Source of the DNA: an uncultured Acidobacteriota bacterium
GTDB lineage: Bacteria > Acidobacteriota > Polarisedimenticolia > J045
DNA length: 64,000 nt
Assembly: GCA_963702425.1 (NCBI GenBank)
Contig: CAVPCQ010000003.1
Coordinates: 54,685-118,684, forward strand
Reading direction: 5' to 3'
Numbering within the stretch: position 1 is the first letter of the stretch; every line of letters begins with the position of its first letter. The translations under genes were made by a program, and so were the position numbers. Shown in pieces: positions 12,428 to 44,749 of the stretch. The notes beneath the pieces were generated by a model, which saw nothing but the letters and a program-made list of their open reading frames with translations, ran no database searches and was not told the origin of the DNA.

Positions 12428-12455
12428 GCCGCGGCGAGCCGCCGGGAGATCGCGC

Positions 12456-22224: not shown

Positions 22225-23163
22225 ATGCGCCCTTCCCGCCCCCCATCGCTCCCCGCGTTCGCCGCTGCTGCTGCCGTCGCCGCGCTTCTCGTCGCCGGCT
22301 GCGGGTCCGCGCGGCGCGAGCTCCCTGCGCTGCCCCTCCCGCCGGCTCCCCCCACCGTCGAGGTCGCCCCGCGGATCGGCCTCGCGCTCGGCGGCGGCGG
22401 GGCGCGCGGGTTCGCCGAGGTCGGCGTGCTCCGCGTGCTGGCCGAGGAGCGGATCCCGGTCTCGATCATCGCCGGGACCTCGGTCGGCGCGCTGATCGGC
22501 GCGCTCTACGCCGACAAGCCGACCGTGTTCGACATCGAGTACGAGGCGCTGGCGATCGAGGAGTCCGACCTGCTCGACCGTTCGCTGCTCTCGCTGATCT
22601 CGGGCGGCGGCTACGCCAAGGGGGAGCGGATCGAGTCCTACCTCGACACCCGCCTGGCGCACGCCGCGATCGAGGACCTGCCGCTGCGCTTCGCCGCGAT
22701 CGCGACGGATCTGCACAGCGGCGCGACGGTCGCCTTCGAGCGCGGACCGGTCGCGCGGGCGGTGCGCGCGTCGGCCGCGATCCCGGGGATCTTCGCGCCG
22801 GTCGAGATCGACGGGCAGCTCTACGTCGACGGCGGCGTGAGCAACCCGGTGCCGGCCGACGTCGCGCGGCGGATGGGGGCCGAGGTCGTGATCGCGGTCT
22901 CGATCCCGCGCGAGATCCCCGCGAAGGCGCCGCGGACGCAGGTCGGGATCGCGATGCAGGCGATCGGGATCATGGCCGCCGAAATCAGCCGCTGCCGCGA
23001 GCGCGAGGCCGACGTCGTCCTCAGCCCCGAAGTCGGCGACGTCGCGTTCGACGACTTCTCCCAGAAACGGCGGCTGATCGAGGCCGGCATGGCCGCGACC
23101 CGGGCCGCGTTGCCGGAGATCCGCCGCGCGATCGCGGCCAAGACGAAGAGGGTTCCCCAGTGA
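22225..23163 (+). CDS. patatin-like phospholipase, lipoprotein
   Basis: Lipobox LVAGC; GGGARG, GTSVG, DGG motifs. Confidence 0.9.
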   Translation: MRPSRPPSLPAFAAAAAVAALLVAGCGSARRELPALPLPPAPPTVEVAPRIGLALGGGGARGFAEVGVLRVLAEERIPVSIIAGTSVGALIGALYADKPTVFDIEYEALAIEESDLLDRSLLSLISGGGYAKGERIESYLDTRLAHAAIEDLPLRFAAIATDLHSGATVAFERGPVARAVRASAAIPGIFAPVEIDGQLYVDGGVSNPVPADVARRMGAEVVIAVSIPREIPAKAPRTQVGIAMQAIGIMAAEISRCREREADVVLSPEVGDVAFDDFSQKRRLIEAGMAATRAALPEIRRAIAAKTKRVPQ

Positions 23164-28752: not shown

Positions 28753-30090
28753 TCAGTCGTCTCCGCCCCGGCGCTCCCACAGGTGCTCTCGCGTTTCCGC
28801 CACGATGACGCCCGACAGCAGCAGCAGCGAGACCAGGTTCGGCACCGCCATCAAGCCGTTGGCGATGTCGGCGAACGACCAGACCGCCGGCAGCGAGGCG
28901 ACCGAGCCGACCATGACCGCGACGACCCAGAGCAGCCGGTACGGGACGATCGCCCGCACGCCGAACAGGTACTCGGCCGCCCTCTCCCCGTAGTAACTCC
29001 AGCCCAGGATCGTCGAGAAGACGAAGGTGAGCAGGCCGACCGTCAGCACGGTCGGGCCGATCCAGGGGATGTGCGAGAAGGCGGCGTGGGTCAGCTCCGC
29101 GCCCTTCATCCCCCGGGCCCAGTCGCCGGTGTTGACGACCACGAGCCCGGTCATCGCGCAGACGACGACCGTGTCCCAGAAGGTTCCGGTCGAGGAAACC
29201 AGCGCCTGCCGGACCGGGTTGGCGGTCCGTGCCGCAGCCGCGACGATCGGAGCGCTCCCCAGCCCCGACTCGTTGGAGAACAGCCCGCGCGCGACCCCGT
29301 AGCGCAGCGCCTCGCGCATCGTCGCGCCGGCGAAGCCACCGGCCGCGGCCTGCCCCGTGAAGGCGCTGGAGACGATCAGGGAGATGGCCTCGGGGAGCGT
29401 CTCCCAGCCCATCACCAGCAGGATCGCGCAGCCCGCGACGTAGAAGATCGCCATGAACGGGACCAGCCCCTCGCAGACCCGCGCGATCGACTGGATCCCG
29501 CCCAGGATCACGACCGCGGTGAGCGCGGTCATCAGCGCGCCGCTGACCCAGGGGGAGACCCCGAACGAGGTCCTGACCATCGACGAGATCGAGTTGGCCT
29601 GGACCATGTTGCCGATCCCGAAGGCGGCGACCGCGGTCAGCCCGGCGAAGATCAGGCCCAGCCAGCGCATCCCGAGCGCGCGCTCGAGCACGTACATCGG
29701 CCCGCCGGCCATCATCCCGCGCTCGTCCTTGATCCGGTACTTCACCGACAGGAGAGCCTCGGAGTACTTGGTCGCGATTCCGAAGACGCCCGTCAGCCAC
29801 ATCCAGAGCACGGCGCCCGGACCGCCGAGCGAGACGGCGGTGGCGACGCCGACGATGTTGCCGGTGCCGATCGTCGCCGCCAGCGCGGTGGTCAGCGCGC
29901 CGAACTGGCTGACGTCCCCTTCCGCGCCGTGGTCGGCCTTGACCGAGAGCCGGATCGCGCGCCCCAGGTAGCGCTGGATGACGCGCGTGCGGAGCGTCAG
30001 GTAGAGGTGGGTGCCGACGAGCAGGATCAGCAGCGGCGGCCCCCAGACCCAGTCCGCGATCTTCGCGAGCAGCGCTTCGAGCTCGTGCAT
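28753..30090 (-). CDS. alanine/glycine:cation symporter (AgcS family)
   Basis: LAATIGTGNIVGVA, GGPGAVLWMW, GVARGLFSNESGLGS. Confidence 0.93.
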   Translation of the reverse strand: MHELEALLAKIADWVWGPPLLILLVGTHLYLTLRTRVIQRYLGRAIRLSVKADHGAEGDVSQFGALTTALAATIGTGNIVGVATAVSLGGPGAVLWMWLTGVFGIATKYSEALLSVKYRIKDERGMMAGGPMYVLERALGMRWLGLIFAGLTAVAAFGIGNMVQANSISSMVRTSFGVSPWVSGALMTALTAVVILGGIQSIARVCEGLVPFMAIFYVAGCAILLVMGWETLPEAISLIVSSAFTGQAAAGGFAGATMREALRYGVARGLFSNESGLGSAPIVAAAARTANPVRQALVSSTGTFWDTVVVCAMTGLVVVNTGDWARGMKGAELTHAAFSHIPWIGPTVLTVGLLTFVFSTILGWSYYGERAAEYLFGVRAIVPYRLLWVVAVMVGSVASLPAVWSFADIANGLMAVPNLVSLLLLSGVIVAETREHLWERRGGDD

Positions 30091-30132: not shown

Positions 30133-31852
30133 TCAGTCCCTGGTCTCGTGGTAGAGCTTCTCGCACAGGTCGCGCTTGACCTTGCCCGACGTCGTGCGCG
30201 GGATCCGCGGCACGAAGAGCACGTCGTGCACCGGGACCCCGTGCCGGGCCAGGACGTAGCGCTTGACCTCGTTGATCAGCTCGGCCTGGTCGGAGGATAT
30301 CAGCCTCTCGACGTACGACTCGAGATCGCCCAGGCTGGCCCCCTTCCACCAGCCCCGCGGACCGCCGAGCTTCATGAAGGCCTGCAAGGCCGCGATCTTG
30401 GCCCGGACCACCGGGGTCATGCGGCCGAGCGGTACGGTCAGCACGATCAGCGCCTCGCGCCCCTCGATTTCCAACGAGAAGACGTGGACCTTGCCGCGCT
30501 CGATGAACGGCAGCTCCTCGAGGTCGGCGACGATGTCGTGGGCGTAGTAGTTCCGCCCGTTGATGATCATCAGGTCCTTGAGTCGGCCGGTGACGTAGAG
30601 CCGGCCGTCGTCGTCGAGCATCCCGAGGTCGCCGGTGCGCAGCCAGCCCTCCTCGAACGGCTGCGCCCCGGTCTCCTCGTCGAGGTAGCCGTCGGTCACC
30701 GACGTCCCCCGCAGCAGGACCTCGCCGGTCTCGAGCGGCGGCGCCACGGTGCCGTCGTCGCGGCGGATCCGGATCGAGAGGTCGCCGACCGCCCGGCCGA
30801 CCGCCGGAACCTCGATCCCGTCGACGCGGCGCGTGACGATCGGCTCCTGGAAACGGGGGCTGGTGGCGATCAGGGTCGCCTCCGCCAGGCCGTACACCGG
30901 GTGGAGCGCGCGCCCGTCGAACCCGACCCGCGCGAACTTCTCGGCGAAGCGCCGGAGCGACGCCGGGCGCACCGGCTCGGCGCCGACGAACAGGACCTCC
31001 CACGAGGCGAGGTCGATCCGGCGCTCGTCCAGCATTTCGTCGCTGATCCGGTCGGTGCACAGGTCGAGCGCGAAGTTGGGGCAGACGGAGATCCGCGCGC
31101 CGATCCGGCTGATCGTCTCGAGCCAGGCGATCGGCTTCATCAGGAAGCGGATCGGGTTCATGATCACCATCTGCCGCGGCGTGACGTAGAGCGTCGTGAG
31201 GAGGGCCCCGATCAGCCCCATGTCGTGGTAGAGCGGCAGCCAGCTGCAGGCGGACTCGTCGCGGTGGCGGCGGCCGATTTCGGCGATCAGGCGCGTGTTG
31301 TCGAGGACGTTCTCGTGGGTGAGCCGGACCCCTTTGGGGCGCGAGGTGCTGCCCGAGGAGAACTGCACGAAGGCGAGGTCGCCCGGGCTCACCGCGGCCG
31401 GCGGCACGGTCCGGCACCGGCCCGTCGACGTCGAGCGAAGACGGCACGAAGTCGATCAGGCGCGCGGGGGAGACGTGCTGGAGCTCGTCGTTCCCACCGA
31501 TCAGCTCGGGCTGGGTGAAGACCGCCTTCGCCCCGGTGCTCGCGAGCAGCCCGGCGACGAAGGGCAGCTGCGCGCCCGCCGCCTGTCCCATCGTCAGCCC
31601 GCTGACCGACAGCGGCACCGCGCCCAGGTGGAACAGCGCCAGGAAGCCGGCCAGCACGTCGGGATCGCTGGTCGGGCAGACGACGACGCGGTCCCCCCGC
31701 TCGATCCCCTGCGCAGCGAGCGCCGCGGCGTGGACGAGAATCTTGCGATGGAACGCGGGCCAGGAGAAGGCGCGCTCCGTGCCGCGGGCGTCGACCAGCG
31801 TCAGGCCGTGATCCTCGCCGCCGTCCGCGAGCCCGGCGACCAGTTCGACCAT
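30133..31852 (-). CDS. fatty acyl-AMP ligase-like adenylating enzyme; frameshift near 31410
   Basis: QFSSGSTSRPKGV, SWLPLYHDMGLIG, YGLAEATL, TGDLG, GRLKD, PRTTSGK. Confidence 0.85.
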
Positions 31853-31866
31853 CGTGCGCGGCCCGC

Positions 31867-32964
31867 TCACAGGACGGGGATCTCCTGCGTTAGGCGCCCC
31901 TCGATCCGCTCGAAGACCTCGTCGAGCGAGCGGCCGACGATCGTCAGGCCGTGGTTCTTCAGGCCGATCACCGCGCGCGACGGATCGGGCGCGGCGAGCA
32001 CCAGCCCGGCGACCTCGTCCGCCAGCTGCCGAGTGCCACAGGGCCAGCTCTGGAGCGTGGCCGGCACCCCGTCGATCCAGGCGTGGACGTGGACGATCGC
32101 CCCGGCCTCGGGGACGGCGCGGTAGATCGTGAGGTGCTCGATCGCGTCCACGGAGACGCGGGCGGCCGGATCGGTCCCGGGGGGAACCGAGAGCAGGATC
32201 GTCCGCGTCGCTTCGTCGTAACCCTTCACCAGCAGCAGGTCCTGCCCGATGCGCGAGAGTTGCCCCTTGTCCACCCCGCGGCCGGTCATCCAGAAGCTCT
32301 CCGCGTCGCGCCGCGCCGAGAGGTTGCCGTAGGAGAGCTGCTTGAGGCCGAAGTACTTCATCACCAGGCGCATGTCGCGCTCGGTCAGCACGTCCCTCAT
32401 GTCGAAGACCGTCGGCAGCAGGTGGAGTGCGGCCAGGCGCCGGCCGGCCGTGGCGAGGGCGCGGGTCGTCGCATCGCCGTCGTGGAGCTCGCGCGGCAGG
32501 TCCTCGTCGAGGCGGTTGTCGATCACGAGCCGCGCCCCGGCCAGCGGCGCGACGGTGTCGAGCACCTCGGAAGCCAGCGCGTCGCCCGCCGGCCGCGGGC
32601 GGAAGCCGAGTTCCGGCGTCATGAAGAAGGCCCGGCCGGCGAACGCCCCGGCCTGCACGCGGTGGACGACGAGATTCGACATCGTCTTGACCAGCGCGGC
32701 GTAGGTTGCGCGCTTCAGCGCCGCCTCGTCGGCGAAGTCGGTGCCGTCGCTGTCGATGAGCGTCGCGAGGAAGACCGACGGATCGGGACGCAAGTAGTTC
32801 GGCCGCGCGTGCTCCAGCGTCGTGGCGTTGACCACCAGGTCGACCTCCGGGTCGTCCGCGGGCACCGTGACGAACCCGCGCGCGGGGAGGCCCTGCTCCA
32901 CCGCGGAGACCAGCGCGAGCAGGGCGCGCGACAGCGCCGCGTCGCGGACGACCGCCGCCTTCAC
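31867..32964 (-). CDS. class II aldolase/adducin-family protein with long N-terminal extension
   Basis: SYGNLSAR..FWMTGRGVDK..SVDAIEH..IVHVHA..NHGL (three metal-binding His). Confidence 0.85.
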   Translation of the reverse strand: MKAAVVRDAALSRALLALVSAVEQGLPARGFVTVPADDPEVDLVVNATTLEHARPNYLRPDPSVFLATLIDSDGTDFADEAALKRATYAALVKTMSNLVVHRVQAGAFAGRAFFMTPELGFRPRPAGDALASEVLDTVAPLAGARLVIDNRLDEDLPRELHDGDATTRALATAGRRLAALHLLPTVFDMRDVLTERDMRLVMKYFGLKQLSYGNLSARRDAESFWMTGRGVDKGQLSRIGQDLLLVKGYDEATRTILLSVPPGTDPAARVSVDAIEHLTIYRAVPEAGAIVHVHAWIDGVPATLQSWPCGTRQLADEVAGLVLAAPDPSRAVIGLKNHGLTIVGRSLDEVFERIEGRLTQEIPVL

Positions 32965-33227
32965 GCGGCATCCCCCGCGCCGGCACGCGCCGCTTCGACC
33001 AGCGCGATCAGCCGCGAGAACGGCGCGCCGACCAGCTCGGGGACGCGCTCGGGCGGGACCTCGATCCCGAAGGCGTCCTCCGCGTCGAGCAGCAACTGGA
33101 GCAGCGCGGACGAGTCGTACCCCAGCTCGTAGTCGAGCCGCTCGTCGTCGCCGACCCGCGAAATCCGCAGTCGGGAGCGGGCGATCACCAGGCGCTCCAG
33201 CCGCTCGCGCGTGTCGGTGGCGGCCAC
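32961..33227 (-). CDS. acyl carrier protein
   Basis: 88 aa, acidic, LGYDSS phosphopantetheine site, EDAFGIEV. Confidence 0.88.
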   Translation of the reverse strand: MAATDTRERLERLVIARSRLRISRVGDDERLDYELGYDSSALLQLLLDAEDAFGIEVPPERVPELVGAPFSRLIALVEAARAGAGDAA

Positions 33228-33233
33228 GAGCGC

Positions 33234-34568
33234 CTACCCCGGACCCTCGATCCCGGCCATGACCTCGGGCGACCGGGCGCCGCCGGCCACGGTGATCGTC
33301 TCGAGGCCGTGAGCGCCCGGCCCGCTCTCCGCCCGCCGCAGCTGCCAGGCGAAGAAGAGGCCGAGGATCCCCGTGATCGAGAAGATCCACATCCCCGGAC
33401 GGTAGCCGGCCGGGTTGGCGGCGCTGGCGTCGAACGCGGTGTTGGCCCAGCCGATCAACAGGTTGAAGCCGAACAGCCCGATGTTCTGGATCATCGTCAT
33501 CAACCCGTATGCCGTGCCGAGCTTGTTCTGCCCGACGATGTAGGCGACCGACGGCCACATCACGGCCGGGATCATCGAGAACGAGATCCCCATGATCGCC
33601 ATCGGCACGTAGAGCGAAATGCTGCTGTAGGCCATGATCAGGTAGACGGGCACCAGCAGCAGCGAGCCGAACATCATGAACTGCGTGCGCCTGCCGACGC
33701 GATCGACGAGCAGCCCGAACAGCGGCGTGCAGATCATCGCGAACAGGGTCAGCATCGACGACAGGAAGCCGGCCTCCTCGCGCGACACGCCGTGCGCGTC
33801 CTGGAAGAACTTCACGGCGAAGGTCTGGAACGGGAAGATCCCGGAGTAGAAGGTCACGCACAGCGCGACCACGAACCAGTAGGAGCGCCCGAAGGCGCGG
33901 ATGTCACCGAATACGACCTTGTCGGACGAGCCGGCGGTCGCCATGTCGTAGCGCTTCATCGCGCCCGATTCCATGATCCAGTAGACCGCCCCTGCGATCA
34001 ACGACACGAAGCCGAAGACGGTTGCGATCAGCAACGGCCCCTGCCAACCCTGGTAGGCGTCGTGCGCCCAGGTCGGCGAGTTGAGCGCGGCGAACGAGCC
34101 GAGGCGCGCGATCGTCAGGTTGATGCCGAAAGCGAAGGAGAGCTCCTTGCCGCGGAACCACTGGGCCAGCGCGGTAGTGATCGCGACGATCAGCGATTCG
34201 GCGCCGAGCCCGAACAGCAGGCGGCCCGCTGCCATCATCGGCAGGGTGGGCGTGAGCGCGGTGAGGACCGCCCCGAGCGCGCAGAGCATCGAGAACAGGA
34301 AGGTCGACTTCTTGACGCCGATGCGGTCGATGATCAGCCCGCCGATCAGCACCATGATGATGTTCGGGAAGCTGTAGATCGCGTTGAGCAGGCCGATGTT
34401 GTCGTCGGTGAAGTTGAGCTGCTTGACGAGCACGTCGGCCAGCGGGCTGATCGAGTCGTAGACGTAGTAGTTCCCGAACATCGCGAGGCTGAGCACGACC
34501 AGCACGGCCCAACGGTAGGCCGGCGGCGGGGCCGGCAGGGCGCGCGTCGCGACGGGATCGGCAGTCAT
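33234..34568 (-). CDS. MFS transporter (MFSD1-like)
   Basis: ~12 TM segments; GNYYVYD, GLIIDRIG, GRLLFGLGAES, WFRGKEL. Confidence 0.88.
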   Translation of the reverse strand: MTADPVATRALPAPPPAYRWAVLVVLSLAMFGNYYVYDSISPLADVLVKQLNFTDDNIGLLNAIYSFPNIIMVLIGGLIIDRIGVKKSTFLFSMLCALGAVLTALTPTLPMMAAGRLLFGLGAESLIVAITTALAQWFRGKELSFAFGINLTIARLGSFAALNSPTWAHDAYQGWQGPLLIATVFGFVSLIAGAVYWIMESGAMKRYDMATAGSSDKVVFGDIRAFGRSYWFVVALCVTFYSGIFPFQTFAVKFFQDAHGVSREEAGFLSSMLTLFAMICTPLFGLLVDRVGRRTQFMMFGSLLLVPVYLIMAYSSISLYVPMAIMGISFSMIPAVMWPSVAYIVGQNKLGTAYGLMTMIQNIGLFGFNLLIGWANTAFDASAANPAGYRPGMWIFSITGILGLFFAWQLRRAESGPGAHGLETITVAGGARSPEVMAGIEGPG

Positions 34569-34592
34569 CGGGTCTCCGGAGGACGCGGGAGT

Positions 34593-35558
34593 TTACTCCG
34601 GCCCGGGGACGATCGCGCGCAGAGCGGCCGGCAGAACGTCGATCGTCACCGCTCCGGCTCCGGTCGCCACGATCTCGCCGTCGGCGTGAATCGGGATCCC
34701 GGGCGTGAAACTCGCCGTAAGCCGCCTGAACCGGCCGAACTCGAAGCGGGGCTCCTCGCCCAGCTCGGCGCGAAGCGCCCGCCACAGGAAGCGCAGCACC
34801 TCGATGCGGCTCGACGGGCCGACCCGGGCGTAATCCAGCAGCCCGTCGTCCGGCCGGGCCGCGGCGGCCATCACGAAGCCGCCGCCGGTGGTGCGGCCGT
34901 TGGCGACCGTGAAGAGGATCACCGCGCCTCGGAACGGCCGGCCGTCGATCGAGGCGTCCGTCTCCCACGGGCCGGGCCGGGCCACCATCGAGGCCAGCGC
35001 GGCGAGGGCGTAGGCCGGGAATCCGTGCAGCGGCAGGCGCCGGGCCCGCACGGCCACGTCGCCGTCGAAGCCGAGCCCTGCGGCGTTGACGAAGATCACC
35101 TCCCGCCCGTCGGCAACGAGGCGACCGAGGTCGAGCGCGAGCGTCCGCTGTCCCGCGAGCGCGAGCGCCAGCGCGGCCCGCGGCTCGAACGGCAGGCCGA
35201 GCGCGCGCGCAAGGTCGTTCCCCCGCCCCGCCGGCACCAGACCCAGCAACGGACGCGTCGCCGGGTCGGGCTGGCCGGCGACGAGCCCGGCGGCCACCGC
35301 CTGCAGCGTCCCGTCGCCACCGACCGCCACCACGCGGAGGACCCCGCGCTGCGCCGCCTCGCACGCCGCCGCGAGCCCGTCGCCGAAGCTCCCGGTCTCC
35401 CGCAGCGCGAAGCCGGAGCGGCCGGGAGCGCCCCCCGCCGCCGCCGCGCCCCCCGCCGGCGCCGCCGCGCGCTCCGCCAGTGCCGCGCGGAGCGCCCGCC
35501 GGCGCGCCGCCGTGCCGGCGTTCCGGTTGACGACGACGAGGGTGCCCGGCGCGCTCAC
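34593..35558 (-). CDS. diacylglycerol/sphingosine kinase-family (YegS/DgkB-like) lipid kinase
   Basis: VVVNRNAG, GGDGT, PAGRGNDLARALG, GLGFDG, DDGLLD, HADGE. Confidence 0.9.
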   Translation of the reverse strand: MSAPGTLVVVNRNAGTAARRRALRAALAERAAAPAGGAAAAGGAPGRSGFALRETGSFGDGLAAACEAAQRGVLRVVAVGGDGTLQAVAAGLVAGQPDPATRPLLGLVPAGRGNDLARALGLPFEPRAALALALAGQRTLALDLGRLVADGREVIFVNAAGLGFDGDVAVRARRLPLHGFPAYALAALASMVARPGPWETDASIDGRPFRGAVILFTVANGRTTGGGFVMAAAARPDDGLLDYARVGPSSRIEVLRFLWRALRAELGEEPRFEFGRFRRLTASFTPGIPIHADGEIVATGAGAVTIDVLPAALRAIVPGPE

Positions 35559-37915
35559 GGCGGACCGGTTCGCAGCGCCTCCAGCCGCGCCGCGTGCCGC
35601 CGGAGCCGGGCCCCGCGCGCGCCGGCGAAGCGGACCACCGCGTCGAGGATCGCGTCCGGATCGAGGTGCGCCTCCTCGAGCACCTCCTCGACCGTGCCGC
35701 CCGTGCGCCAGCGGTCGTCCCAGTCGGCGCAAAGCGAGGCGGAGAGGGCGTCGCCGTCCGGCAGCCAGCGCGCCAGCGACGCGCGCGAGCGGTTCGTGAT
35801 CCCCAGCGCGTCGAGCCGGTCGGTCTCGGACAGGACGCGCTCGCGGTAGGCCGCCTGCTGGCGGTCGAATAGCTGCGGGCTGAGCGCGGCAACGATCTTC
35901 AGGTTCAGCCCGCGGCGCTCGAGCTCCGGCAGCAGCCCCACGAGGTTTGCCGTGCTCGACGCGCCGGTGACCACGATCACGCCGTCGCGCGGCATGTCCG
36001 GCCGCGCCTCGCGCAGCAGGTAGGCCCCGTGCGCGGCGTCGAACCGGGAGGGAAGCTGCAGGGCACGGCGGTCCGGCACGAGAAGCGGCGGGCGAACGAG
36101 GTGCAGCGCGAGGATCGGGAACCCGCCCGCCAGCGCGGCCGCGATCAGCACCGGGACCTCGTTGGGATCCCACGGGTGCAGGTCGCAGACCTGCCCCTCC
36201 GGGAAGAGCTGCGACACCGCCGGTGCGAAGACGCCGAAGTGGGTGCGGCTGTCCTCCGCGGTCTCGGGGCCCGAGTGCCCGAGCACCCACAGCACCGGCC
36301 CGATCTTCAGCTCGGCATCCTGCGCCATCTGGGAGTAGAGCCGCATCGGCCCGTACTGCAGGTAGGCAAACGCCCCGTAGCTCGAGTGAGCTGCCGCGAA
36401 GCCGTTCCAATCGCGTTCCGGCGCCGGGTCGAAGTTGACCGACGCGATCCCCGCCGCCATCGCCGCGTTGGTGAACTCCGTGATCTGCGCCGGCAGCAGC
36501 ACGCCGTCGGGGTTCGCCGTGCGCTCGTAGTCGCCGAAGCCGGCGCGCCCCTCGAAGTCGCGCGCGAAGAGCGCCAGGCTCGTCGACTCGGCGAGGTCGG
36601 CCGAGAGCGCCAGAAACAGCGGCCGTCCGTACGCCTCGCGGGCCCAGCTGTTGGCCCAGGCGCCCCAGCGACCCATCGCGACCTTGTTCGAGACCCGCGT
36701 CCCGGGCGTGAACCAGAGTGCCTCGGGGTAGGCTCGCGCGTCGGTCAGCCGCGGGTCGCGCCACGGGTTCCGGGCCCCGGCCGCCGCGAGGCCGCCCGGC
36801 CGCTCCGGAACCGCCTCGCCCAGCTCGACCAGTCGCTCGGCAACGAAGCGGCAGCTCTCGCCGTCGTCGAGCAGGACCGAGAGCGCGACGCGCAGGTTCG
36901 CCGCGGCGCGCGCGCGGCGCGCGGCGGGATCGGACGGTGCCGGCTCGCCGAAGCCGTCGAAGCGCACGCCGTAGCGCTCCTGGAACGGGCGCTTGGTCTC
37001 CCAGAACGCAGGCGCGCCGGCGGCGTGCGGCACGCCGTGGCTCGCGCTGTCGAAGCGGCCGTAGCCCCGCCCCTTGCGCGTGCGCGCCCAGACCGCCGCC
37101 GGGCGGCCGCCGGGCTCCGGATCGAGCGTGGCCTGGTAGAGGGCGCGCGCGAGCTGCGCCGGGCTGGCCCCGTCGGCGACGCCCGCGACGCGCCAGCCGT
37201 GGCTCGCGAACCAGTCCGTCGGCGTCCCGTAGATGACCGCCGAGGCCGGCCGCGGGTCGATCCCGAAGTCGTTCCAGTCGAGCAGCACGACGAGATTGTC
37301 GAGACCGAGGCCCCAGGCCGCATTCAGCGTCTCGTGCGTGCTGCCGGCGGTCGCGCCGCCCTCCCCTTCCAGCGCGAAGACACGCACGCCGGGCAGTCCG
37401 CCGCGCCGGAGCGCGAGCGCCATCCCGGCCGCGGCGGGCAGGCCGTGCCCCGAGGGCCCGGTGTTGAACTTCAGGAAGAGCGACCTGCCGGCGAACTCGG
37501 CGTGCCCGGGAAGCCCCCCGCGGCGGCGCAGCGCCAGGAGCTCGTCGGCGCGGAGCGACCAGCGCGCGGCATTCGCGGCGGCGAACCGCGGGTCGCCCGT
37601 CGCGGCCGCCCGCGCGGCGAGCGCCTCGTGGAGCGCGGCCAGCAGCGCGTAGACCGCCGGAACGGTGTGACCCGCGGCGAGCACGAAGCGGTCGGCGCCG
37701 ACCTTCTCCGGATGCCGGAGGTCCCATCGCATCGCCCCCGACAGGGCGAGGGTGACCAGCATCGGGACCTTCGAGCGCGAGCCGCCGGGGTGGCCCGACT
37801 GGCGAAAGTCGAGCGCGAAGTCGACCAACTGGTCGACGACGTCGATCACGGTCTCGAGGCGCGGCAGGTCGGGGCTGAGGCGCGCGAGCGCCTCCTCCCA
37901 TGGGGGAGCAGCCAT
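35555..37915 (-). CDS. divergent transketolase-like ThDP enzyme
   Basis: SGHPGGS, DRFVLAAGH, GLPGHAE, NTGPSGHG, SADLAES, HSGPETAEDSRTH; GEG in place of GDG. Confidence 0.85.
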   Translation of the reverse strand: MAAPPWEEALARLSPDLPRLETVIDVVDQLVDFALDFRQSGHPGGSRSKVPMLVTLALSGAMRWDLRHPEKVGADRFVLAAGHTVPAVYALLAALHEALAARAAATGDPRFAAANAARWSLRADELLALRRRGGLPGHAEFAGRSLFLKFNTGPSGHGLPAAAGMALALRRGGLPGVRVFALEGEGGATAGSTHETLNAAWGLGLDNLVVLLDWNDFGIDPRPASAVIYGTPTDWFASHGWRVAGVADGASPAQLARALYQATLDPEPGGRPAAVWARTRKGRGYGRFDSASHGVPHAAGAPAFWETKRPFQERYGVRFDGFGEPAPSDPAARRARAAANLRVALSVLLDDGESCRFVAERLVELGEAVPERPGGLAAAGARNPWRDPRLTDARAYPEALWFTPGTRVSNKVAMGRWGAWANSWAREAYGRPLFLALSADLAESTSLALFARDFEGRAGFGDYERTANPDGVLLPAQITEFTNAAMAAGIASVNFDPAPERDWNGFAAAHSSYGAFAYLQYGPMRLYSQMAQDAELKIGPVLWVLGHSGPETAEDSRTHFGVFAPAVSQLFPEGQVCDLHPWDPNEVPVLIAAALAGGFPILALHLVRPPLLVPDRRALQLPSRFDAAHGAYLLREARPDMPRDGVIVVTGASSTANLVGLLPELERRGLNLKIVAALSPQLFDRQQAAYRERVLSETDRLDALGITNRSRASLARWLPDGDALSASLCADWDDRWRTGGTVEEVLEEAHLDPDAILDAVVRFAGARGARLRRHAARLEALRTGPP

Positions 37916-38040: not shown

Positions 38041-39522
38041 ATGGTTCGCAGCAAGTCTCGAGGGAGAAGTCCGGACCACGGACGGCGCACGTTCATCCGA
38101 CGCTCCGCGATCGCTTCGGCAGCCCCGGTCGTCCTCGGGCACCTCGCGTGGGCGGAAGAGATGGGCGGCGCGGCGGGCGCGGACGGGACGGCAGCCCTCC
38201 CGCGCGTCGTGCACGTCCACCATGGCCACGCCGCACGCTGGCCGCGCACCACCGGGATGTACCGCGACTACCTCGACCAGGCCTCGATCGACCGGATGCT
38301 CGATCAGGCCGTGATGGTCCTCAAGGACGCCGGGGTGGATGAGGCCTGGCAGCGCGTCTTCCCGCGCGCCGCGCCGGAAACGCGGAAACTGGCGATCAAG
38401 GTGAACCTCAACAACTCGATCGACACGGCCGACGGCGCGGGGAACGTCATCGACGCCGTTCCCGAGCCGTGCATCTCCGTGATCAAGGGCTTCGTGCGCA
38501 CCGGCGGGCTGTCGGGCAACTGCACGATCTACGACGCGACCAACACGGCGCCGAGCCGCTGCCTGGCGACCTGGTTCAAGAACCGCGTCAAGGCCGTTTT
38601 CCCCGACGTGAAGTTCTCCGCGTCCTGCGGAGGCGAGGGGTTCGCCCCCGGAGACGACGACGCCCCGTCCGGCGACGCGCCGGACCCGCGCCAGTACGTC
38701 ACCTGGAGCCCGGCCTACGTCAACCAGCCGCCCGACACGCGGATCGCGTCGGTGGTCCTCTCGAGCGACTACCTGGTCAACGTGCCGATCGTCAAACGGC
38801 ACGGCCAGGCCAACGTGACGCTCGGGTACAAGGCTCACCTCGGGTCGATCGACCGGGCCGACCGGATGCACGAGTGGCTCTTCAACGACGTACCCGAGGC
38901 CTCCGTGCTGGCCGACATCATGGGCAGCCCGGTCGTACCCGGCGACCCCGCGGTGCGTTCGCTCGCGCAGCGGACGGTGCTGACCGTCGGCGACATGCTC
39001 TACGGACATCCCTGCAAGAATTTCGACGTCGTCCCCCGGCCGTGGGCGATTTTCCGCAACGAGTGGCCCTGCAACCTCGTCGTCTCGGACGACCCGGTCG
39101 CCGCCGACTCGGTGATGATCGACATCCTCGAGGCCGAGCCGGCCAGCGACGGGGGCTGCGGCTCGAGCCGGCCGTGGGCACGCCGCCACCTGCAGTTCGC
39201 CGAGGCCAAGGGCCAGGGCGTGCACGACCACGTCGCGCTGCCGCAGGGCCAGCGCTTCGACCCGGCCCGGATGACCTACACTCGGATCGACTACCGCTTC
39301 GTCGAACTGAACTCCTCGGGAGCGCTCCTGACCGTGACGCGGCTCGCGAACGGCGCCGTGCTGCTGCAGTGGACGCACTACTTCCCGGGTGCGTGCGAGG
39401 TCTGGCGCGCGACGAAGCCCGACTTTTCCGACGCGCTGCTGCTCGGGGCCTCGCCGGCCGGCCGCTTCCTCGACAACAGCCCGCTGCCGAAGGCCTTCTA
39501 CAGCGTGCTCTACGGCGGCTGA
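38041..39522 (+). CDS. Tat-exported DUF362-domain protein
   Basis: GRRTFIR twin-Arg signal; IKVNLN, LVNVPIVKRH..VTLGYK, DPVAAD; GGAGG RBS. Confidence 0.8.
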   Translation: MVRSKSRGRSPDHGRRTFIRRSAIASAAPVVLGHLAWAEEMGGAAGADGTAALPRVVHVHHGHAARWPRTTGMYRDYLDQASIDRMLDQAVMVLKDAGVDEAWQRVFPRAAPETRKLAIKVNLNNSIDTADGAGNVIDAVPEPCISVIKGFVRTGGLSGNCTIYDATNTAPSRCLATWFKNRVKAVFPDVKFSASCGGEGFAPGDDDAPSGDAPDPRQYVTWSPAYVNQPPDTRIASVVLSSDYLVNVPIVKRHGQANVTLGYKAHLGSIDRADRMHEWLFNDVPEASVLADIMGSPVVPGDPAVRSLAQRTVLTVGDMLYGHPCKNFDVVPRPWAIFRNEWPCNLVVSDDPVAADSVMIDILEAEPASDGGCGSSRPWARRHLQFAEAKGQGVHDHVALPQGQRFDPARMTYTRIDYRFVELNSSGALLTVTRLANGAVLLQWTHYFPGACEVWRATKPDFSDALLLGASPAGRFLDNSPLPKAFYSVLYGG

Positions 39523-39539
39523 CGGGGTACGATCGCGGC

Positions 39540-41435
39540 ATGCCAATGTCACTGCGCCGACCCCGGCTGTCCGCCGCGCTCCTGCTGCTCGCCGGGACCG
39601 CCCTGCTGGTGTTCGCCGCCGCCCCCCCCGCTGGCGTCCCCCTCCCCGGAACGCAGCCGCGCGACGGGAGCGGCGATCCGGCCTTTCCCCCGTTCGCCAA
39701 CCACGCCGAGCCGGGGCTGCTCGACGTGCCGGGACGCTGCAGCGTCTGCCACGGCGGCTACCGCGCGCCCGACGTCGCGCCTTTCGAGCCGCACGACACC
39801 TGGGCCGGCTCGCTGATGGCCAACGCCGCGCGCGACCCGCTCTTCTGGGCCGCGCTCGACGTTGCCAACCAGGACGACGCGAAGCTCGGCCACGTCGGCG
39901 TCGGCGACTTCTGCCTGCGCTGTCACGCTCCCAAGGCCTGGTACGAGGGGCGCTCGAGCTGCGAGAACGCATGGGGCCAGCCGTTCGACGGGAGCTGCCT
40001 GCAGGGCACGCCGGAGCGCAACAACACCGACTTCGAGGGGATCGTCTGCGCCAGCTGCCACCGGATGTACGACGCCTCGCAGCCACCGGAGGGGGAGTTC
40101 GCCGATCCGCGCGCGCCCTACGCCGGGAACGCGCAGATCTACCTCTCGCGGACGCCCGAACTGATGTTCGGCCCCTTCGCCGACTCCGTCCCGACCGGCC
40201 ACCAGTTCGCAGCGACGCCGTTCCAGCGCTCGGCCGCGCTCTGCGGGCAGTGCCACGACATCACGAACCCGGTGAAGAACCGCCGCGACGCGCAGAGCGG
40301 GGCCGATCTCGGCTACCGCTTCCCGATCGAGCGGACCTACCGCGAGTGGCAGCAGTCGGAGTACGCGCGCGCCGGCTCGCGCGTCGCCGCGACCTGCCAG
40401 GCCTGTCACATGCCGCGGCCCGACCTCGACGCCGACGGCCGGGCCGACGCCGCGACGGCCTGCTCGTCGCCGCCCGGCCCGCGCGGGACGGGCACGGAGC
40501 TCGAGGGCCCCTACCGCACCCACCAGTTCCAGGGCGCGAACGTCTTCATGCTCGATCTGCTGGCGGGCGAGTACGGCGTGCCGCTGCGACGCACCGCGGC
40601 CTACGCGCAAGCGCGCACGGCGACGCTCGACCTGCTGCAGCAGCGGACCGCCGAGCTGCGCGTCTCCGCGACCCGGCTGGTCTTCTCCCGCCGCTATCTC
40701 CCGGTCGACGTGCGGGTCACCAACCTTGGCGGGCACAAGTTCCCGACCGGTTACACTGAGGGGCGGCGCGCCTGGCTCGAGGTCGCGGCGGGGATCGACG
40801 CCGACCGCGACGGCTCGCTCACCGAGGCCGAGACGAACTGGTCCTCGGGCCGCTACGACGCCGCCAGCGCGACGCTGCTCGACGACCCCCACCTCAAGGT
40901 CTACGAGGCGAAGCACGGGGTGTTCGACTACAACGGCAACGGCCGCTGCGACACCGTGGACGCCGCCACGGGACACGAGATGTTCCACTTCGTGCTCAAC
41001 GACTGCGTCGTCAAGGACAACCGGATCCCTCCGCGCGGGTTCCGGCCGGACGCCGAGACCGAGCCGGTCGGCGCCCGCTTCGCGAACGATCCCGCGAGCG
41101 GCGGGCTGGCGAACTGGGACGACACCCGCTACCCGGTCTGGATCCCCGCCCGGGCCACCGGCTCGATGCTCGTGCGCGTCCGGCTCTGGCACCAGGTCGT
41201 GCCGCGCGAGTACTCCCGCTTCCTCGCCGCCGAGAGCCGCTCAACCTGCGATCCGTTCGACTATGGGTGCGACCCGACCCAGCCCGACGAGCGGCCCAAC
41301 CGCGGCGAGAAATTCGCTGCGCTTTGGGAAGCCTACGGCCGCTCCGAGCCGGTGCTGATCGACGAGGCGGTGGTAACGATCGACGTCCGCCCGCGGACGC
41401 AGTGGCTGCACCGCAGTGGGGGACAGCAACCGTAA
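39540..41435 (+). CDS. secreted multiheme cytochrome c (5 CxxCH)
   Basis: Signal peptide; CSVCH, CLRCH, CASCH, CGQCH, CQACH; GHKFPTG. Confidence 0.88.
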   Translation: MPMSLRRPRLSAALLLLAGTALLVFAAAPPAGVPLPGTQPRDGSGDPAFPPFANHAEPGLLDVPGRCSVCHGGYRAPDVAPFEPHDTWAGSLMANAARDPLFWAALDVANQDDAKLGHVGVGDFCLRCHAPKAWYEGRSSCENAWGQPFDGSCLQGTPERNNTDFEGIVCASCHRMYDASQPPEGEFADPRAPYAGNAQIYLSRTPELMFGPFADSVPTGHQFAATPFQRSAALCGQCHDITNPVKNRRDAQSGADLGYRFPIERTYREWQQSEYARAGSRVAATCQACHMPRPDLDADGRADAATACSSPPGPRGTGTELEGPYRTHQFQGANVFMLDLLAGEYGVPLRRTAAYAQARTATLDLLQQRTAELRVSATRLVFSRRYLPVDVRVTNLGGHKFPTGYTEGRRAWLEVAAGIDADRDGSLTEAETNWSSGRYDAASATLLDDPHLKVYEAKHGVFDYNGNGRCDTVDAATGHEMFHFVLNDCVVKDNRIPPRGFRPDAETEPVGARFANDPASGGLANWDDTRYPVWIPARATGSMLVRVRLWHQVVPREYSRFLAAESRSTCDPFDYGCDPTQPDERPNRGEKFAALWEAYGRSEPVLIDEAVVTIDVRPRTQWLHRSGGQQP

Positions 41436-43325: not shown

Positions 43326-44384
43326 CTACCCGCACTCCAGTACGAACTTCCCGCCGCGTGCGGCCTCCTCCAGCGCCCGCCCTGCCTCGGCCAGCGGGAA
43401 CGAGGCCTCGATCAGCGCGTCGAGCGGCAGCGGGTGGCGCTCGAGGAAGGCAAGCGCTTCGGCGAACGAGCCGCAGCGCGAGCCCTGCAGCCGGACCTCG
43501 TTCACGACCGCCCGCGTCAGGTCGAAGCGCGCCACGGGCTGCCCGGGCGTCGACTTGAGCGCGACCGTGCCGCGAGGCCGGACCAGGTCGAGCGCGGTCG
43601 CGAGCCCCTCGGCGCTTCCGGTCGCCTCGACGACGAGGTCCGCGCCGCAACCGTCCGACAGGGACCGGACGCGGTCGAGCAGCGCCGACGGCGCGGCGGC
43701 GAGCGGGTCGTCCGGCGCGACCCGCGCGGAGATGTCGGCGACCTCGACCGCGAGTCCGAAGGGCGCGAGCCGCTGCCGCGTCCGCTCGCGGCCGACGGCG
43801 ACGACGCGCGCGCCGAGCCGCTCGGCGACCAGCGCGATCAGCGCCCCGAGCCGGCCGGCACCCAGCACCACGACCAGCTCGCCGGGGGCGACCGGTGACA
43901 GCGCAACGGCCTGCAGCGCCGCCGCGAACGGCTCGACCAGCACCGCCGCGTCGTCGTCGAGCGAATCCGGCAGCGCGACCAGCGTTCCCACCGGCACGAC
44001 GATCTCCTCCGCGAACGCGCCGTCGGCGCCGGCGATCCCGGTCACCGTCCGCGTCGCGCAGTGGGTCGGGAGCGCGCGCGCGCAGAGCGGGCAGAGCTGC
44101 TCCGTGCCGCGCGCGGCGCAGTGGCGACTGATCTCCGCGGTGACGCGCCGGCCGAGCCAGGGCTCGTCGGTCCGGCGCGCCACCTCGATCACCTCGCCCG
44201 ACCATTCGTGGCCGAGGACCAATGGGAGCGGCACGCGGTAGTCGCCGCGGTAGATCGCGACATCGGTCCCGCAGATGCCGGCCCGTCGCACGCGGGCGCG
44301 GGCGTCGCCGGGCGCGAGTGCCGGGCGGGGCCGCTCCTCGAGCCGGAGCTCGAGCGGGGCGGCGAGGACGGTGGCTCTCGGCAT
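43326..44384 (-). CDS. zinc-dependent (MDR) alcohol dehydrogenase
   Basis: GICGTD, GHEWSG, Cys cluster, EPFAAA, GAGRLG. Confidence 0.9.
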   Translation of the reverse strand: MPRATVLAAPLELRLEERPRPALAPGDARARVRRAGICGTDVAIYRGDYRVPLPLVLGHEWSGEVIEVARRTDEPWLGRRVTAEISRHCAARGTEQLCPLCARALPTHCATRTVTGIAGADGAFAEEIVVPVGTLVALPDSLDDDAAVLVEPFAAALQAVALSPVAPGELVVVLGAGRLGALIALVAERLGARVVAVGRERTRQRLAPFGLAVEVADISARVAPDDPLAAAPSALLDRVRSLSDGCGADLVVEATGSAEGLATALDLVRPRGTVALKSTPGQPVARFDLTRAVVNEVRLQGSRCGSFAEALAFLERHPLPLDALIEASFPLAEAGRALEEAARGGKFVLECG

Positions 44385-44749
44385 CCGGCCGGCCCTCCCG
44401 TTACGCCCGCGCCCGGAGGGGTGCAGCGACCGGGCCGATGAAGGCCGTATGCACGAAGTCCGGGAAGATCTCGCCGTCGTTCTCGAGCCACGGTTCGTGC
44501 GGGATCCAGCGCGCGAGGGCGAAGAGGGCGCCGGCGAGGCCCAGGCAGGCCAAGGTGAAGACCAGCGGCCCGCGGCCAATTGACGGGCCCCAGGCGGTCA
44601 CCGCGACGGCGCTGAGCTGCGCAGCCGGCCAGACCAGGACGGGAACGATCGCCTCGACGTGCCCTTCCAACGGCTCTCCCGGAGAGAGGAGCGATTGTAC
44701 CCGGAGCCTGCGCCGGAGCCCTTTCCCGGCCCCCGGACGCGGCCGTTTC

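Follow-up and report, generated by a model that had tools for sequence, protein, structure and literature searches.

A four-gene core conserved in Acidobacteriota, encoding a lipid-type kinase, a carrier protein, a long class II aldolase-like protein and an acyl-AMP ligase, as a possible envelope-lipid module

Introduction

Pairs of a kinase and a class II aldolase-fold enzyme acting on ketose 1-phosphates, such as FucK/FucA, RhaB/RhaD, MtnK/MtnB and the DHAP shunt, represent the classic layout of ketose-1-phosphate catabolism. Acyl-AMP ligases of the FAAL type are known in pairs with carrier proteins (mycobacterial FadD32 and FadD28, the FAALs of Legionella and E. coli), and FAALs with acyl carrier proteins (ACPs) are common starters of natural-product pathways. 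Dedicated carrier proteins also serve in the decoration of LPS or lipid A, as in the case of AcpXL/LpxXL of rhizobia and AlmEFG of Vibrio. For proteobacterial sphingolipid synthesis, a triad of Spt, an ACP and an acyl-ACP synthetase is described in PMC9386255, and CC_1160 is named a ceramide kinase in PMC11324152. In the anisomycin pathway, according to PMC11387542, an aminotransferase and a keto-acid-using transketolase (AniQ/AniP) act through deamination, transketolase condensation with an aldehyde, and re-amination.

The operon described here encodes a transketolase-like (TK-like) enzyme, a lipid-type kinase, an MFS transporter, an ACP, a long class II aldolase-like protein (ALD) and a FAAL-clade ligase. 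A first-pass annotation of this DNA had noted no characterised cluster with such a combination, and our literature searches likewise turned up none.

Results and Discussion

Organization of the operon

The window analyzed here is a 64,000-nucleotide stretch of DNA from an uncultured acidobacterium of soil or sediment. The six genes lie on its minus strand in the order TK-like, kinase, MFS, ACP, ALD, ligase, at distances of -4, 24, 6, -4 and 14 nt. Both overlaps, of the TK-like stop with the kinase start and of the ACP stop with the ALD start, have the form GTGA, which suggests translational coupling. The ligase is followed at 42 nt by a gene of a sodium:alanine-family symporter (28753..30090, minus strand; Pfam Na_Ala_symp, 458.9 bits). 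The coordinates thus bear out the first-pass description of six co-oriented genes with overlaps or gaps of at most 25 bp, the largest gap being 24 nt, and of an amino-acid symporter behind them. The six genes are a genuine operon. The reported absence of ketosynthase, NRPS condensation and acyltransferase domains held for the six operon proteins in Pfam searches, and the same searches detected none in 24 further ORFs scanned in the window. Except for the ACP and the Pfam domains, every family assignment given below falls under the curated whole-protein cut-offs.

The ligase and its carrier protein

The ligase gene (30133..31852, minus strand; Pfam AMP-binding, 137 bits on the C-terminal part) is split in the window over two frames, 31417-31852 and then 30133-31407. 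Its span of 1720 nt is no multiple of 3, and it contains an extra base, at alignment column 443, in comparison with the intact 1719-nt genes of two genomes of the same genus (G001 and G003); intact orthologs encode 572 aa. Each of the 4 public runs used, from 4 studies, gave a site-spanning contig with one base fewer at 31408 or 31410, and in one of these runs (X4) the version without this base accounted for 5.57 of a depth of 11.1. As the extra base is missing from the contigs of all four runs, an indel introduced in assembly is the most likely cause of the break, and the natural gene is most likely intact.

The top NCBIfam model of the intact orthologs was the FAAL subfamily NF006624 (PRK09192), which they matched at 300-313 bits, the cut-off being 600; scores for the remaining FAAL models were under cut-off as well. 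The best 18 solved relatives were mostly of the FAAL type (E 3.7e-66 to 4.2e-34), and non-FAAL ANL enzymes followed at E 4e-23 or weaker. By these models and solved relatives, we place the ligase in the FAAL clade. The ACP (88 aa; 32961..33227, minus strand) carries a PP-binding domain (28.3 bits, Pfam cut-off 20.8) and the conserved Ser expected to take phosphopantetheine, the residues D38-S39 being invariant in 12 orthologs. The operon therefore resembles the described FAAL/carrier pairs both in the best models and most solved relatives of its ligase and in its dedicated ACP with an invariant Ser. In contrast to these pairs, it encodes no PKS, NRPS or acyltransferase as a receiver of the acyl group, and its ligase scores 313 where the FAAL model demands 600.

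The kinase and the long aldolase

The kinase (321 aa; 34593..35558, minus strand) contains a DAGK catalytic domain (DAGK_cat, 71.4 bits) and a YegS C-terminal domain (YegS_C, 66.7 bits), both over their Pfam cut-offs, and belongs to the YegS/DAGK family. It scored 102.9 against NCBIfam TIGR00147, under the cut-off of 118.65, which its Bacteroidales counterpart clears with 171.3; within the genome of the window, the operon kinase is the top match of this Bacteroidales cassette kinase.

In ALD (365 aa; 31867..32964, minus strand), the Pfam Aldolase_II domain (65 bits, cut-off 22.2) covers residues 202-355 only. The AF2 model of the protein (pLDDT 91.0) matched class II aldolase-fold proteins in Foldseek searches, 2irp at E 1.4e-8 and others more weakly, with many FucA/AraD entries among them. 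In 24 ALD sequences, G213-N214, S271, D273, H292, H294, H338 and P308-C309-G310 are invariant. The fold, the predicted metal ligands D273, H292, H294 and H338, and the GN phosphate loop are those of the class II aldolase/adducin superfamily, and we assign the C-terminal part, from its sequence and model, as a class II aldolase-fold metal domain. The highest NCBIfam match of ALD was MtnB (methylthioribulose-1-phosphate dehydratase; TIGR03328). The score of 39.6 bits is well under the equivalog cut-off of 137.05, and the match is limited to residues 213-296, so ALD is not supported as an MtnB.

An alpha/beta domain at the N-terminus, spanning roughly residues 1-150, appears CoaB-like in the model. 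VIA-align gave Z scores of 10.3-12.2 with CoaB entries (2gk4_B 12.2, 5int_B 11.0, 4qji_A 10.4, 6tgv_A 10.3), compared with at most 9.8 for flavodoxin-like folds. Foldseek support was weak (E 3.8e-4 or weaker, TM at most 0.55), and identity was 11-17%.

The linkage of a kinase to an aldolase-type protein with a phosphate loop and metal ligands resembles the ketose-1-phosphate pairs. However, the operon kinase comes from the DAGK/YegS family of lipid kinases, ALD has an additional, possibly CoaB-like domain of 150-190 residues, and the unit includes an ACP and a FAAL.

Inheritance of the four-gene core

Orthologs of the kinase, ALD and ligase occurred in an identical set of 17 of the 41 related genomes, with the ACP alongside. 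Where the contigs are long enough, the kinase, ACP, ALD and ligase genes adjoin one another, as they do in 11 fetched loci from 6 genera; short contigs show a part of this row. In one genus (g4), the TK-like gene, an aminotransferase gene, and the kinase, ACP, ALD and ligase genes form a single block. The kinase and ALD trees resolved the same supported groups. All four genes were present also in two other acidobacterial families (f17 and f35), where the ACP gene comes after the ligase gene. The kinase, ACP, FAAL-clade ligase and ALD are a four-gene core inherited as a unit in Acidobacteriota. That the operon would be a set of chance neighbours without a shared function is very improbable. Although the TK-like, MFS and symporter genes differ between genera, the identical phyletic pattern of three genes in 41 genomes, adjacency held across families despite reordering, the GTGA overlaps with the coupling that they suggest, and the congruent trees all speak against it.

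The neighbours of the core in other lineages include genes of lipid and envelope synthesis. In f17 and f35, the core is followed by kdsB-pyrG-kdsA on the same strand; two of these three loci also have kdsD, and L180 has kdsC and lapB. In family f18, the neighbours of ALD in L181 are an Lgt-like gene and genes of a FAAL-like ligase and a PlsC-like acyltransferase, and those in L182 are an Lgt-like gene, an SDR gene and a flippase-like gene. In other phyla, ALD and the kinase occur together in 20 of 28 genome loci, in a cassette with PEMT-DUF3419, GNAT-like, LysA-like decarboxylase and FtsX/ABC genes. The lipid character and the FAAL-to-ACP loading proposed in the first-pass annotation agree with these neighbours, as they do with the predicted FAAL placement and the invariant ACP Ser. 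In 6 Actinomycetota loci, ALD lies among housekeeping genes without the kinase, ACP or ligase, so its substrate need not be a lipid.

The kinase-ALD-ligase-ACP block followed by kds genes is reminiscent of LPS and lipid A decoration with AcpXL/LpxXL or AlmEFG. However, the search for an acyltransferase of the LpxXL or AlmG type gave none, the ligase is FAAL-type and not amino-acid activating, and kds genes do not adjoin the module in the family of the window.

Proposed function of the module

We tentatively propose, as a real possibility, that the core is an uncharacterised module that builds or decorates a lipid of the cell envelope. The FAAL would adenylate a fatty acid and transfer it to the ACP, a step suggested by family membership and adjacency. 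A lipid-like alcohol or ketol would be phosphorylated by the kinase, as its family suggests. The metal centre of ALD, which retains an aldolase-type phosphate loop and ligands of one Asp and three His, may then act on the phosphorylated alpha-hydroxy-carbonyl intermediate, with aldol, retro-aldol, dehydration, epimerisation and decarboxylation as candidate reactions. We infer each catalytic step, and likewise the direction of biosynthesis rather than breakdown. If this proposal is true, the product is probably an envelope lipid that nobody has described.

Several observations count against a role in envelope lipid synthesis. The operon encodes no acyltransferase, ketosynthase, reductase or thioesterase to use the acyl-ACP, and the family scores are below cut-off (transketolase 117 of 488, MtnB 39.6 of 137, FAAL 313 of 600, the YegS subfamily 102.9 of 118.65). 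The class II aldolase fold, moreover, is also that of oxygenases and decarboxylases among the Foldseek matches.

Bacterial sphingolipid synthesis, as described in the papers cited above, is similar in that the operon unites a specialised ACP with an acyl-activating ligase and a kinase of the DAGK family. However, no alpha-oxoamine synthase (Spt) of the kind that marks sphingolipid clusters was detected in the operon by Pfam. The only PLP enzyme encoded next to the module in relatives, considered as an Spt, was rejected: this Aminotran_1_2 protein is aspartate aminotransferase (AspAT)-like (6f77, E 4.3e-69; NCBIfam aspartate aminotransferase models), which deprives the sphingolipid analogy of its best candidate support.

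It is unlikely that the product is instead a soluble secondary metabolite or signal of the alpha-hydroxyketone or aminopolyol type, exported by MFS or MMPL transporters. The frequent use of FAAL and ACP pairs at the start of natural-product pathways, the patchiness of the module (of 301 genomes sampled across the phylum, 22 have ALD) and the adjoining exporters would fit such a product, as would an aminotransferase-plus-transketolase logic like that given for AniQ/AniP in PMC11387542. On the other hand, PKS, NRPS and a tailoring set are all absent, and membrane-lipid enzymes are the partners in other phyla. Moreover, the module is vertically conserved in whole families (16 of 22 genomes in f1, 13 of 15 in f17) and adjoins Kdo/LPS genes, both of which suit envelope housekeeping better than a mobile biosynthetic gene cluster.

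Accessory genes of the operon

In addition to the core proposed to act on an envelope lipid, the family of the window has the TK-like gene, the product of which may provide a ketol unit. This first gene of the operon (35555..37915, minus strand) encodes 786 aa with three Pfam domains over cut-off (Transketolase_N 67.9, Transket_pyr 30.4 and Transketolase_C_1 28.3 bits). A longer ORF begins at 37936, and translation from the ATG at 37915 gives a product identical to a 786-aa database protein (P0001). Equivalog-level similarity to transketolase (EC 2.2.1.1) was not found, the best NCBIfam equivalog giving 117.4 bits where its cut-off is 488. The nearest solved relative is a transketolase, matched over partial stretches at E 1.4e-23. 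The alignment to it retains SGHPG, GEG...N (GDG...N in the transketolase), SHG and GHSG...AEDSRTH, in which we take GEG...N to be the ThDP-Mg motif and a His to be catalytic. The protein is thus predicted to be a transketolase-like member of the ThDP superfamily with PP, Pyr and C-terminal domains.

The TK-like family has many members, which are well conserved and share a length of about 786 aa. Its gene adjoins the module in genera g1, g4 and partly g6, sits elsewhere in g3, g5 and g6, and was not found in g10; 6 genomes without ALD have it. Among 80 metagenome loci of the family, only 1-2 contained other genes of the operon. The usual neighbours encode xylose-isomerase-like TIM barrels, 2-hydroxyacid and aldehyde dehydrogenases, GntR regulators and ABC transporters, and these contexts mostly resemble carbohydrate or hydroxy-acid metabolism, which also counts against an envelope lipid as the product.

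The TK-like gene is adjoined in most related genera by the gene of an AspAT-like aminotransferase, which may be a further addition to the pathway. By its description in PMC11387542, the AniQ/AniP pair is similar in this respect; however, the aminotransferase is missing from the genus of the window, and the homologues of about 600 aa mentioned in that paper are shorter than the 786-aa TK-like enzyme. In the genus of the window, the operon has instead the MFS gene (444 aa; 33234..34568, minus strand; Pfam MFS_1, 137.5 bits), the product of which presumably moves a substrate or product. Its NCBIfam matches were generic and all under cut-off. MFS orthologs at this operon position were restricted to four genomes of the genus (G001-G004), and weaker relatives adjoin the TK-like gene in L067 (31% identity) and L108 (39% identity). 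The co-conservation implied by a single six-gene pathway in the first-pass annotation therefore stood for the kinase, ACP, ALD and ligase, shared in 17 of 41 genomes and found in f17 and f35, and failed for the TK-like gene, often unlinked as in the metagenome loci, and for the MFS gene, confined to its own genus.

This distribution also bears on a pathway in which a TK-derived ketol would be joined to the FAAL-loaded acyl-ACP, giving an acyloin, polyol or sphingoid-like lipid to be phosphorylated by the kinase and exported by the MFS protein. The overlap of the TK-like stop with the kinase start, the single block in g4, the ThDP and His motifs kept in the alignment, and the amino-ketol scaffold made by the anisomycin aminotransferase and transketolase (PMC11387542) are in its favour, and a chain from a TK product through the kinase to a class II aldolase-type enzyme would be chemically coherent. 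We consider it improbable, however, as the core persists with the TK-like gene absent or unlinked in g3, g5, g10, f17 and f35, core genes accompany the TK-like family in just 1-2 of the 80 metagenome loci, the aminotransferase is missing in the genus of the window, and no enzyme known or predicted here would couple a ketol to acyl-ACP.

The sugar- and hydroxy-acid-type neighbours of the TK-like family would fit with catabolism or salvage. An imported ketose-like or aminopolyol compound, with the MFS protein and the Na/Ala symporter as importers, would be phosphorylated and then cleaved by the aldolase. The TK-like enzyme would feed the fragments into central metabolism, and FAAL and ACP would recycle a fatty acid set free on the way. 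The classic kinase and class II aldolase pairing and the two transporters flanking the cluster in its own genus point the same way. Nevertheless, we hold this to be quite unlikely: the kinase is of a lipid-kinase, not a sugar-kinase, family; a FAAL with an ACP of its own serves for loading in biosynthesis; the partners elsewhere are biosynthetic or envelope-related (PEMT-DUF3419, GNAT, Lgt-like, PlsC-like, kds genes); and both transporters are genus-specific. The symporter gene follows the ligase gene in four loci (L001, L059, L060 and L082), all of the genus of the window, and in no other genus.

Two further genes accompany the proposed envelope-lipid module. An MMPL-type transporter gene adjoins it in g4, and nearby exporters such as this one and the FtsX/ABC genes of the cassette in other phyla speak for the proposal. 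Divergent from the operon, a DUF362 protein is encoded at 38041..39522 on the plus strand (Pfam DUF362, 37.1 bits); the ORF caller placed its start at 37900, and the Met at 38041 is the likelier one. Its N-terminus is of the twin-arginine type (...GRRTFIRRS...). DUF362 orthologs adjoin the TK-like gene or the kinase gene in loci of the same genus and in L061, L067 and L077, one occurs in L108, and in L066 a DUF362 gene identified by Pfam lies by the TK-like gene.

Operon Structure and Integrity of the Ligase Gene

The cluster lies in a region of 70-75% G+C and, as assigned with Pfam, consists of minus-strand genes for a transketolase-like protein (TK-like, 35555-37915, 786 aa), a YegS/DAGK-family kinase (34593-35558), an MFS transporter (33234-34568), an 88-aa acyl carrier protein (ACP, 32961-33227), a class II aldolase-like protein (ALD, 31867-32964, 365 aa) and an AMP-binding ligase (30133-31852). 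As the first-pass annotation had described, the six genes are co-oriented, contain two overlaps, and are followed by a sodium:alanine-family symporter gene (28753-30090, minus strand). Both overlaps proved to be GTGA start/stop overlaps; the remaining genes of the six are spaced by 24, 6 and 14 nt, and 42 nt separate the ligase from the symporter gene. Clearly, the operon is real. The absence of ketosynthase, condensation and acyltransferase domains, also noted in that annotation, was borne out by Pfam searches of the cluster proteins and of 24 other ORFs of the window. A scan for promoters and terminators returned no promoter-like sites and two terminator-like sites, both intragenic, against 3.2 expected. 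Divergent from the operon is a gene for a DUF362 protein with a twin-arginine-type N-terminus (about 38041-39522, plus strand; Pfam), whose orthologs adjoin the TK-like or the kinase gene in several genera (loci L061, L066, L067, L077 and L108).

The ligase gene of the window is split over two frames, its span of 1720 nt being no multiple of three. Its orthologs in three related genomes (G001, G003 and G007) occupy a single frame, and a DNA alignment with orthologs revealed one additional base in the window gene, at column 443. We aligned contigs of four public sequencing runs (X1-X4), from four studies, to the window. In all four runs the contig spanning the site lacked base 31408 or 31410; these contigs covered 431 nt (X1), 509 nt (X2), 247 nt (X3) and 548 nt (X4, at 5.57 of 11.1 depth), with 5, 11, 3 and 28 other differing letters, respectively. 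Because of the intact orthologs and the run contigs, which contradict the alternative that the ligase is a pseudogene, we attributed the break to an assembly indel and took the gene to be intact, with 572 aa. In the closest relative (locus L001 of genome G004), the ligase gene carries a different additional base, 75 nt upstream of that in the window, and the MFS gene is also broken. Single-base frame breaks at differing sites were seen in the MFS and ligase genes of two close relatives with few-contig assemblies (L001:8396-9728 and 11114-12830; L060:11681-13014), and this scatter fits assembly indel errors and not gene decay.

Conservation of a Four-Gene Core

All genomes used here are metagenome-assembled; the counts come from group samples of mutually non-independent relatives, and a gene given as not found is not thereby shown to be absent. 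Among 41 related genomes (40 relatives and that of the window), ALD orthologs were present in 17, and orthologs of the kinase and of the ligase (54-100% identity) in the identical 17, which belong to genera g1-g6 and g10 of the window's own family, f1. Additional ligase matches of 39-43% identity occurred in three genomes (G030, G032 and G034), the last of which is flagged as unpublished and contributed this match only. The order kinase-ACP-ALD-ligase was contiguous in 11 loci from six genera, and short contigs showed fragments of it with the order unchanged. In genus g6 the core is split into two parts, ALD-ligase and a part in which the kinase and ACP genes follow those for the TK-like protein and for an AspAT-like aminotransferase (AT) of relatives.

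The remaining genes were more loosely attached. TK-like orthologs (at least 52% identity) were found in 21 of the 41 genomes, including six without ALD; the gene shares a locus with ALD in g1 (the window's genus) and g4 only, lies apart from it in g3, g5 and g6, and no copy turned up in g10 among these genomes. The MFS and symporter genes were in position only in the window's own genus. The view of the cluster as one co-conserved pathway held for the kinase, ALD and ligase, with the ACP contiguous, and did not hold in general for the TK-like protein and the MFS transporter. These results show that the four-gene core is co-inherited and stays together through rearrangements, and it is highly improbable that the genes of the operon are neighbours by chance.

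The Core in Other Acidobacterial Families and Phyla

Relatives of ALD were found in 22 of 301 sampled Acidobacteriota genomes: four of five in f1 (the window's genome counted), 13 of 15 in f17, both in f18, and one each in f35, f78 and f84. Families f17 and f35 have the genes arranged as kinase-ALD-ligase-ACP, whole in loci L180, L185 and L186 and partial in L176, L177 and L179, with ACPs 33-37% identical to that of the window. In all three loci with enough flank, kdsB-pyrG-kdsA follow directly on the same strand (kinase-to-kds blocks L180:8080-19048, L185:4024-11767 and L186:2752-11849); kdsD comes next in L180 and L186, and L180 also has kdsC and a LapB-like gene. The kds genes beside this block hint at a link to LPS. 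In f18, ALD adjoins a FAAL-like ligase, an Lgt-like gene and a PlsC-like acyltransferase in one locus (L181), and an Lgt-like gene, an SDR and a flippase-like gene in the other (L182).

A scan for ALD with one genome per species gave 28 loci from several phyla, at only one of which, L001 of the close relative, all six genes stood together. A YegS-type kinase lay within 10 kb of ALD at 20 of the 28 (18 by tblastn, and L025 and L026 by ORF clustering). The eight others comprise six Actinomycetota loci, in which ALD lies by ilvD and gatB, and two from Bacteroidales, where the contigs break off 0.7 and 2.3 kb upstream of ALD. One cassette is common to Bacteroidota, Aminicenantia, Planctomycetia, Trueperaceae, a Bacillota-labelled genome and low-GC Acidobacteriota, and is present in f78 and f84. 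It runs through the kinase, a PEMT-like/DUF3419 fusion (BtaA family), a 369-aa GNAT-like protein, a LysA-like PLP decarboxylase, ALD, an FtsX permease and an ABC ATPase (for example, L017:4656-12866; also L008, L011, L013-L016, L019-L021, L023-L027, L183 and L184). The 369-aa protein (ORF cluster F3) was placed in a GNAT acyltransferase group by the ESM Atlas only (score 0.98), and matches in a PDB profile search with F3 were all at E 0.099 or weaker. The cassette looks like an undescribed lipid head-group pathway of its own. A zinc-type alcohol dehydrogenase (ORF cluster F7), encoded in the window at 43326-44597 (minus strand), occurs near ALD at eight loci (Actinomycetota, Chloroflexia and the window), which may be chance, as such dehydrogenases are common.

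The best match of the Bacteroidales kinase in the window's genome is the cluster kinase, and the ALD and kinase trees agree on the supported groups, namely f1, f17 with f35, and the other-phyla cassette. Taken together, these data show that the kinase-ALD pair recurs across phyla and that it is repeatedly associated with membrane-lipid, LPS and exporter genes. That the product is a soluble metabolite or signal appears improbable beside the membrane-lipid and LPS associations.

Enzyme Families of the Core

Among NCBIfam models, those of FAAL subfamilies fit the ligase best (300-313 bits; cut-off 600), and its 18 best solved relatives are mostly of FAAL type (E 3.7e-66 to 4.2e-34), with non-FAAL ANL enzymes following from E 4e-23. 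The Asp-Ser of the ACP is invariant in 12 orthologs. The kinase has DAGK_cat and YegS_C domains (Pfam) and scores 102.9 against the YegS subfamily model, slightly under the cut-off of 118.65 (NCBIfam).

Clustered at 90% identity, the ALD family forms at least 2803 clusters with E 1e-30 or better, every one of which bears a generic name. In the predicted structure (pLDDT 91.0), the C-terminal half has a class II aldolase fold (best Foldseek match 2irp, E 1.4e-8); further matches include FucA, AraD and APIP, as well as three oxygenases, TqaM, POD and NovR. Across 24 sequences representing six phyla, no variation occurs at G213-N214, S271, D273, H292, H294, H338 or P308-C309-G310. Residues 1-150, modelled alone (pLDDT 90.8), came closest to the CoaB/phosphopantothenoylcysteine synthetase fold (VIA-align Z 12.2, 11.0, 10.4 and 10.3, against at most 9.8 for the next folds). 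As identity to CoaB is 11-17% and the Foldseek matches are weak and flavodoxin/CoaB-like, this likeness may serve as a fold-level lead only; the ESM Atlas gave no match above 0.75 for the domain. A role of ALD as an MtnB-type enzyme of MTA salvage was rejected, since its score is under the cut-off and the acidobacterial module contains no SAM enzyme.

The TK-Like Family and Its Aminotransferase Partner

The TK-like protein has all three transketolase domains (Pfam) and scores 117 against transketolase equivalogs, far under their cut-off of 488 (NCBIfam). Aligned to a solved transketolase, it keeps SGHPG, GEG...N, which we take to be the ThDP-Mg motif, SHG and GHSG...AEDSRTH, the retained residues presumably having their usual roles. 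In a search for its family, which proved both large and well conserved, 4619 of 8000 scored candidates passed E 0.001, the best 120 of them being 53-100% identical and 671-857 aa long.

At 80 metagenome loci (L089-L168), the commonest neighbours of the TK-like gene were xylose-isomerase-like TIM barrels (15), split transketolases (8) and D-2-hydroxyacid dehydrogenases (7), followed by HpcH aldolases, GntR regulators, aldehyde dehydrogenases and ABC permeases; AT adjoined it at 13 loci, and core genes appeared at one or two. Enzymes acting on hydroxypyruvate are known from three of these neighbour families, which makes hydroxypyruvate a reasonable guess for the donor substrate, and the TIM barrels, D-2-hydroxyacid dehydrogenases and AT together suggest a hydroxypyruvate-linked reaction. 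For the operon itself, catabolism or salvage, the latter already raised in the first-pass annotation as a reverse route, seems quite unlikely to us.

The window protein falls into a clade of eight rows (FastTree, SH-like support 100), five of them AT-adjacent. Its sister (support 98), from genus g12, is adjoined by a weakly similar MFS gene (31% identity) and a DUF362 gene. The AT orthologs are mutually 63-79% identical; none was found in the five own-genus genomes or for the g12 sister, and the best match in the window's genome (36-37% identity) looks like a housekeeping AspAT. The AT gene of relatives (about 400 aa, Aminotran_1_2) was first taken as serine palmitoyltransferase-like, and the sphingolipid-type reading based on it was dropped because PDB and NCBIfam searches give an AspAT-like enzyme. 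A natural precedent for the AT and TK-like pair is AniQ/AniP of anisomycin biosynthesis, in which the aminotransferase is reported to yield the keto acid, the transketolase to condense this acid with an aldehyde, and the aminotransferase then to re-aminate what is formed (PMC11387542).

A Possible Envelope-Lipid Module

We tentatively favour the core as an envelope-lipid module, with odds a little short of even. The FAAL-clade ligase would load a fatty acid onto the ACP, the kinase would provide a phosphorylated intermediate, and the metal site of ALD might act on a phospho-alpha-hydroxy-carbonyl group; a ketol could come from the TK-like enzyme in genomes that have one, and the MFS transporter may carry substrate or product. 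The earlier proposal joins an acyl-ACP to a sugar-derived ketol unit, for which the TK-like enzyme would be the source; this enzyme shares a locus with ALD in two genera, and we regard such chemistry as unlikely.

A broader extension of the envelope-lipid reading, which we consider possible and rather doubtful, is that the kinase and ALD define a widespread, undescribed route to new phosphorylated envelope lipids or LPS decorations. The acyl and amine modules feeding this pair would then differ by phylum: FAAL/ACP, with or without TK-like protein and aminotransferase, in Acidobacteriota, and PEMT-BtaA-like, GNAT and decarboxylase proteins in Bacteroidota, Planctomycetota and others. The hallmark of the route would be the two-domain ALD, carrying out a C-C or C-O step on a phospho-ketol bound to a lipid.

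The first-pass annotation knew of no characterised cluster of such composition, and none appeared in the titles and opening lines of abstracts in literature listings, including those on DUF3419, on betaine lipids, on class II aldolase/YegS/ACP/lipid kinase and on lipid A/FAAL/ACP/Acidobacteria. As a unit of four genes that is kept across families, recurs with other lipid genes in several phyla and includes an enzyme fusion without precedent, the core offers a testable entry to lipid or LPS modification. It also gives functional context to two large, generically named families, the 365-aa long aldolases and the 786-aa transketolase-like enzymes. The genes are borne by Acidobacteriota and by Bacteroidales of peat and sediment, abundant and mostly uncultured bacteria whose envelope lipids serve as environmental markers with poorly understood genetics.

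Other Features of the Window

A patatin-like phospholipase is encoded some 7 kb downstream of the cluster (22051-23163, plus strand). Two long ORFs without a Pfam match overlap on opposite strands at 39389-41192. A very long ORF at 57038-63304 (minus strand; 2088 aa from stop to stop) contains Sortilin-Vps10, T9SS-associated galactose-binding-like and DUF6923 repeats.
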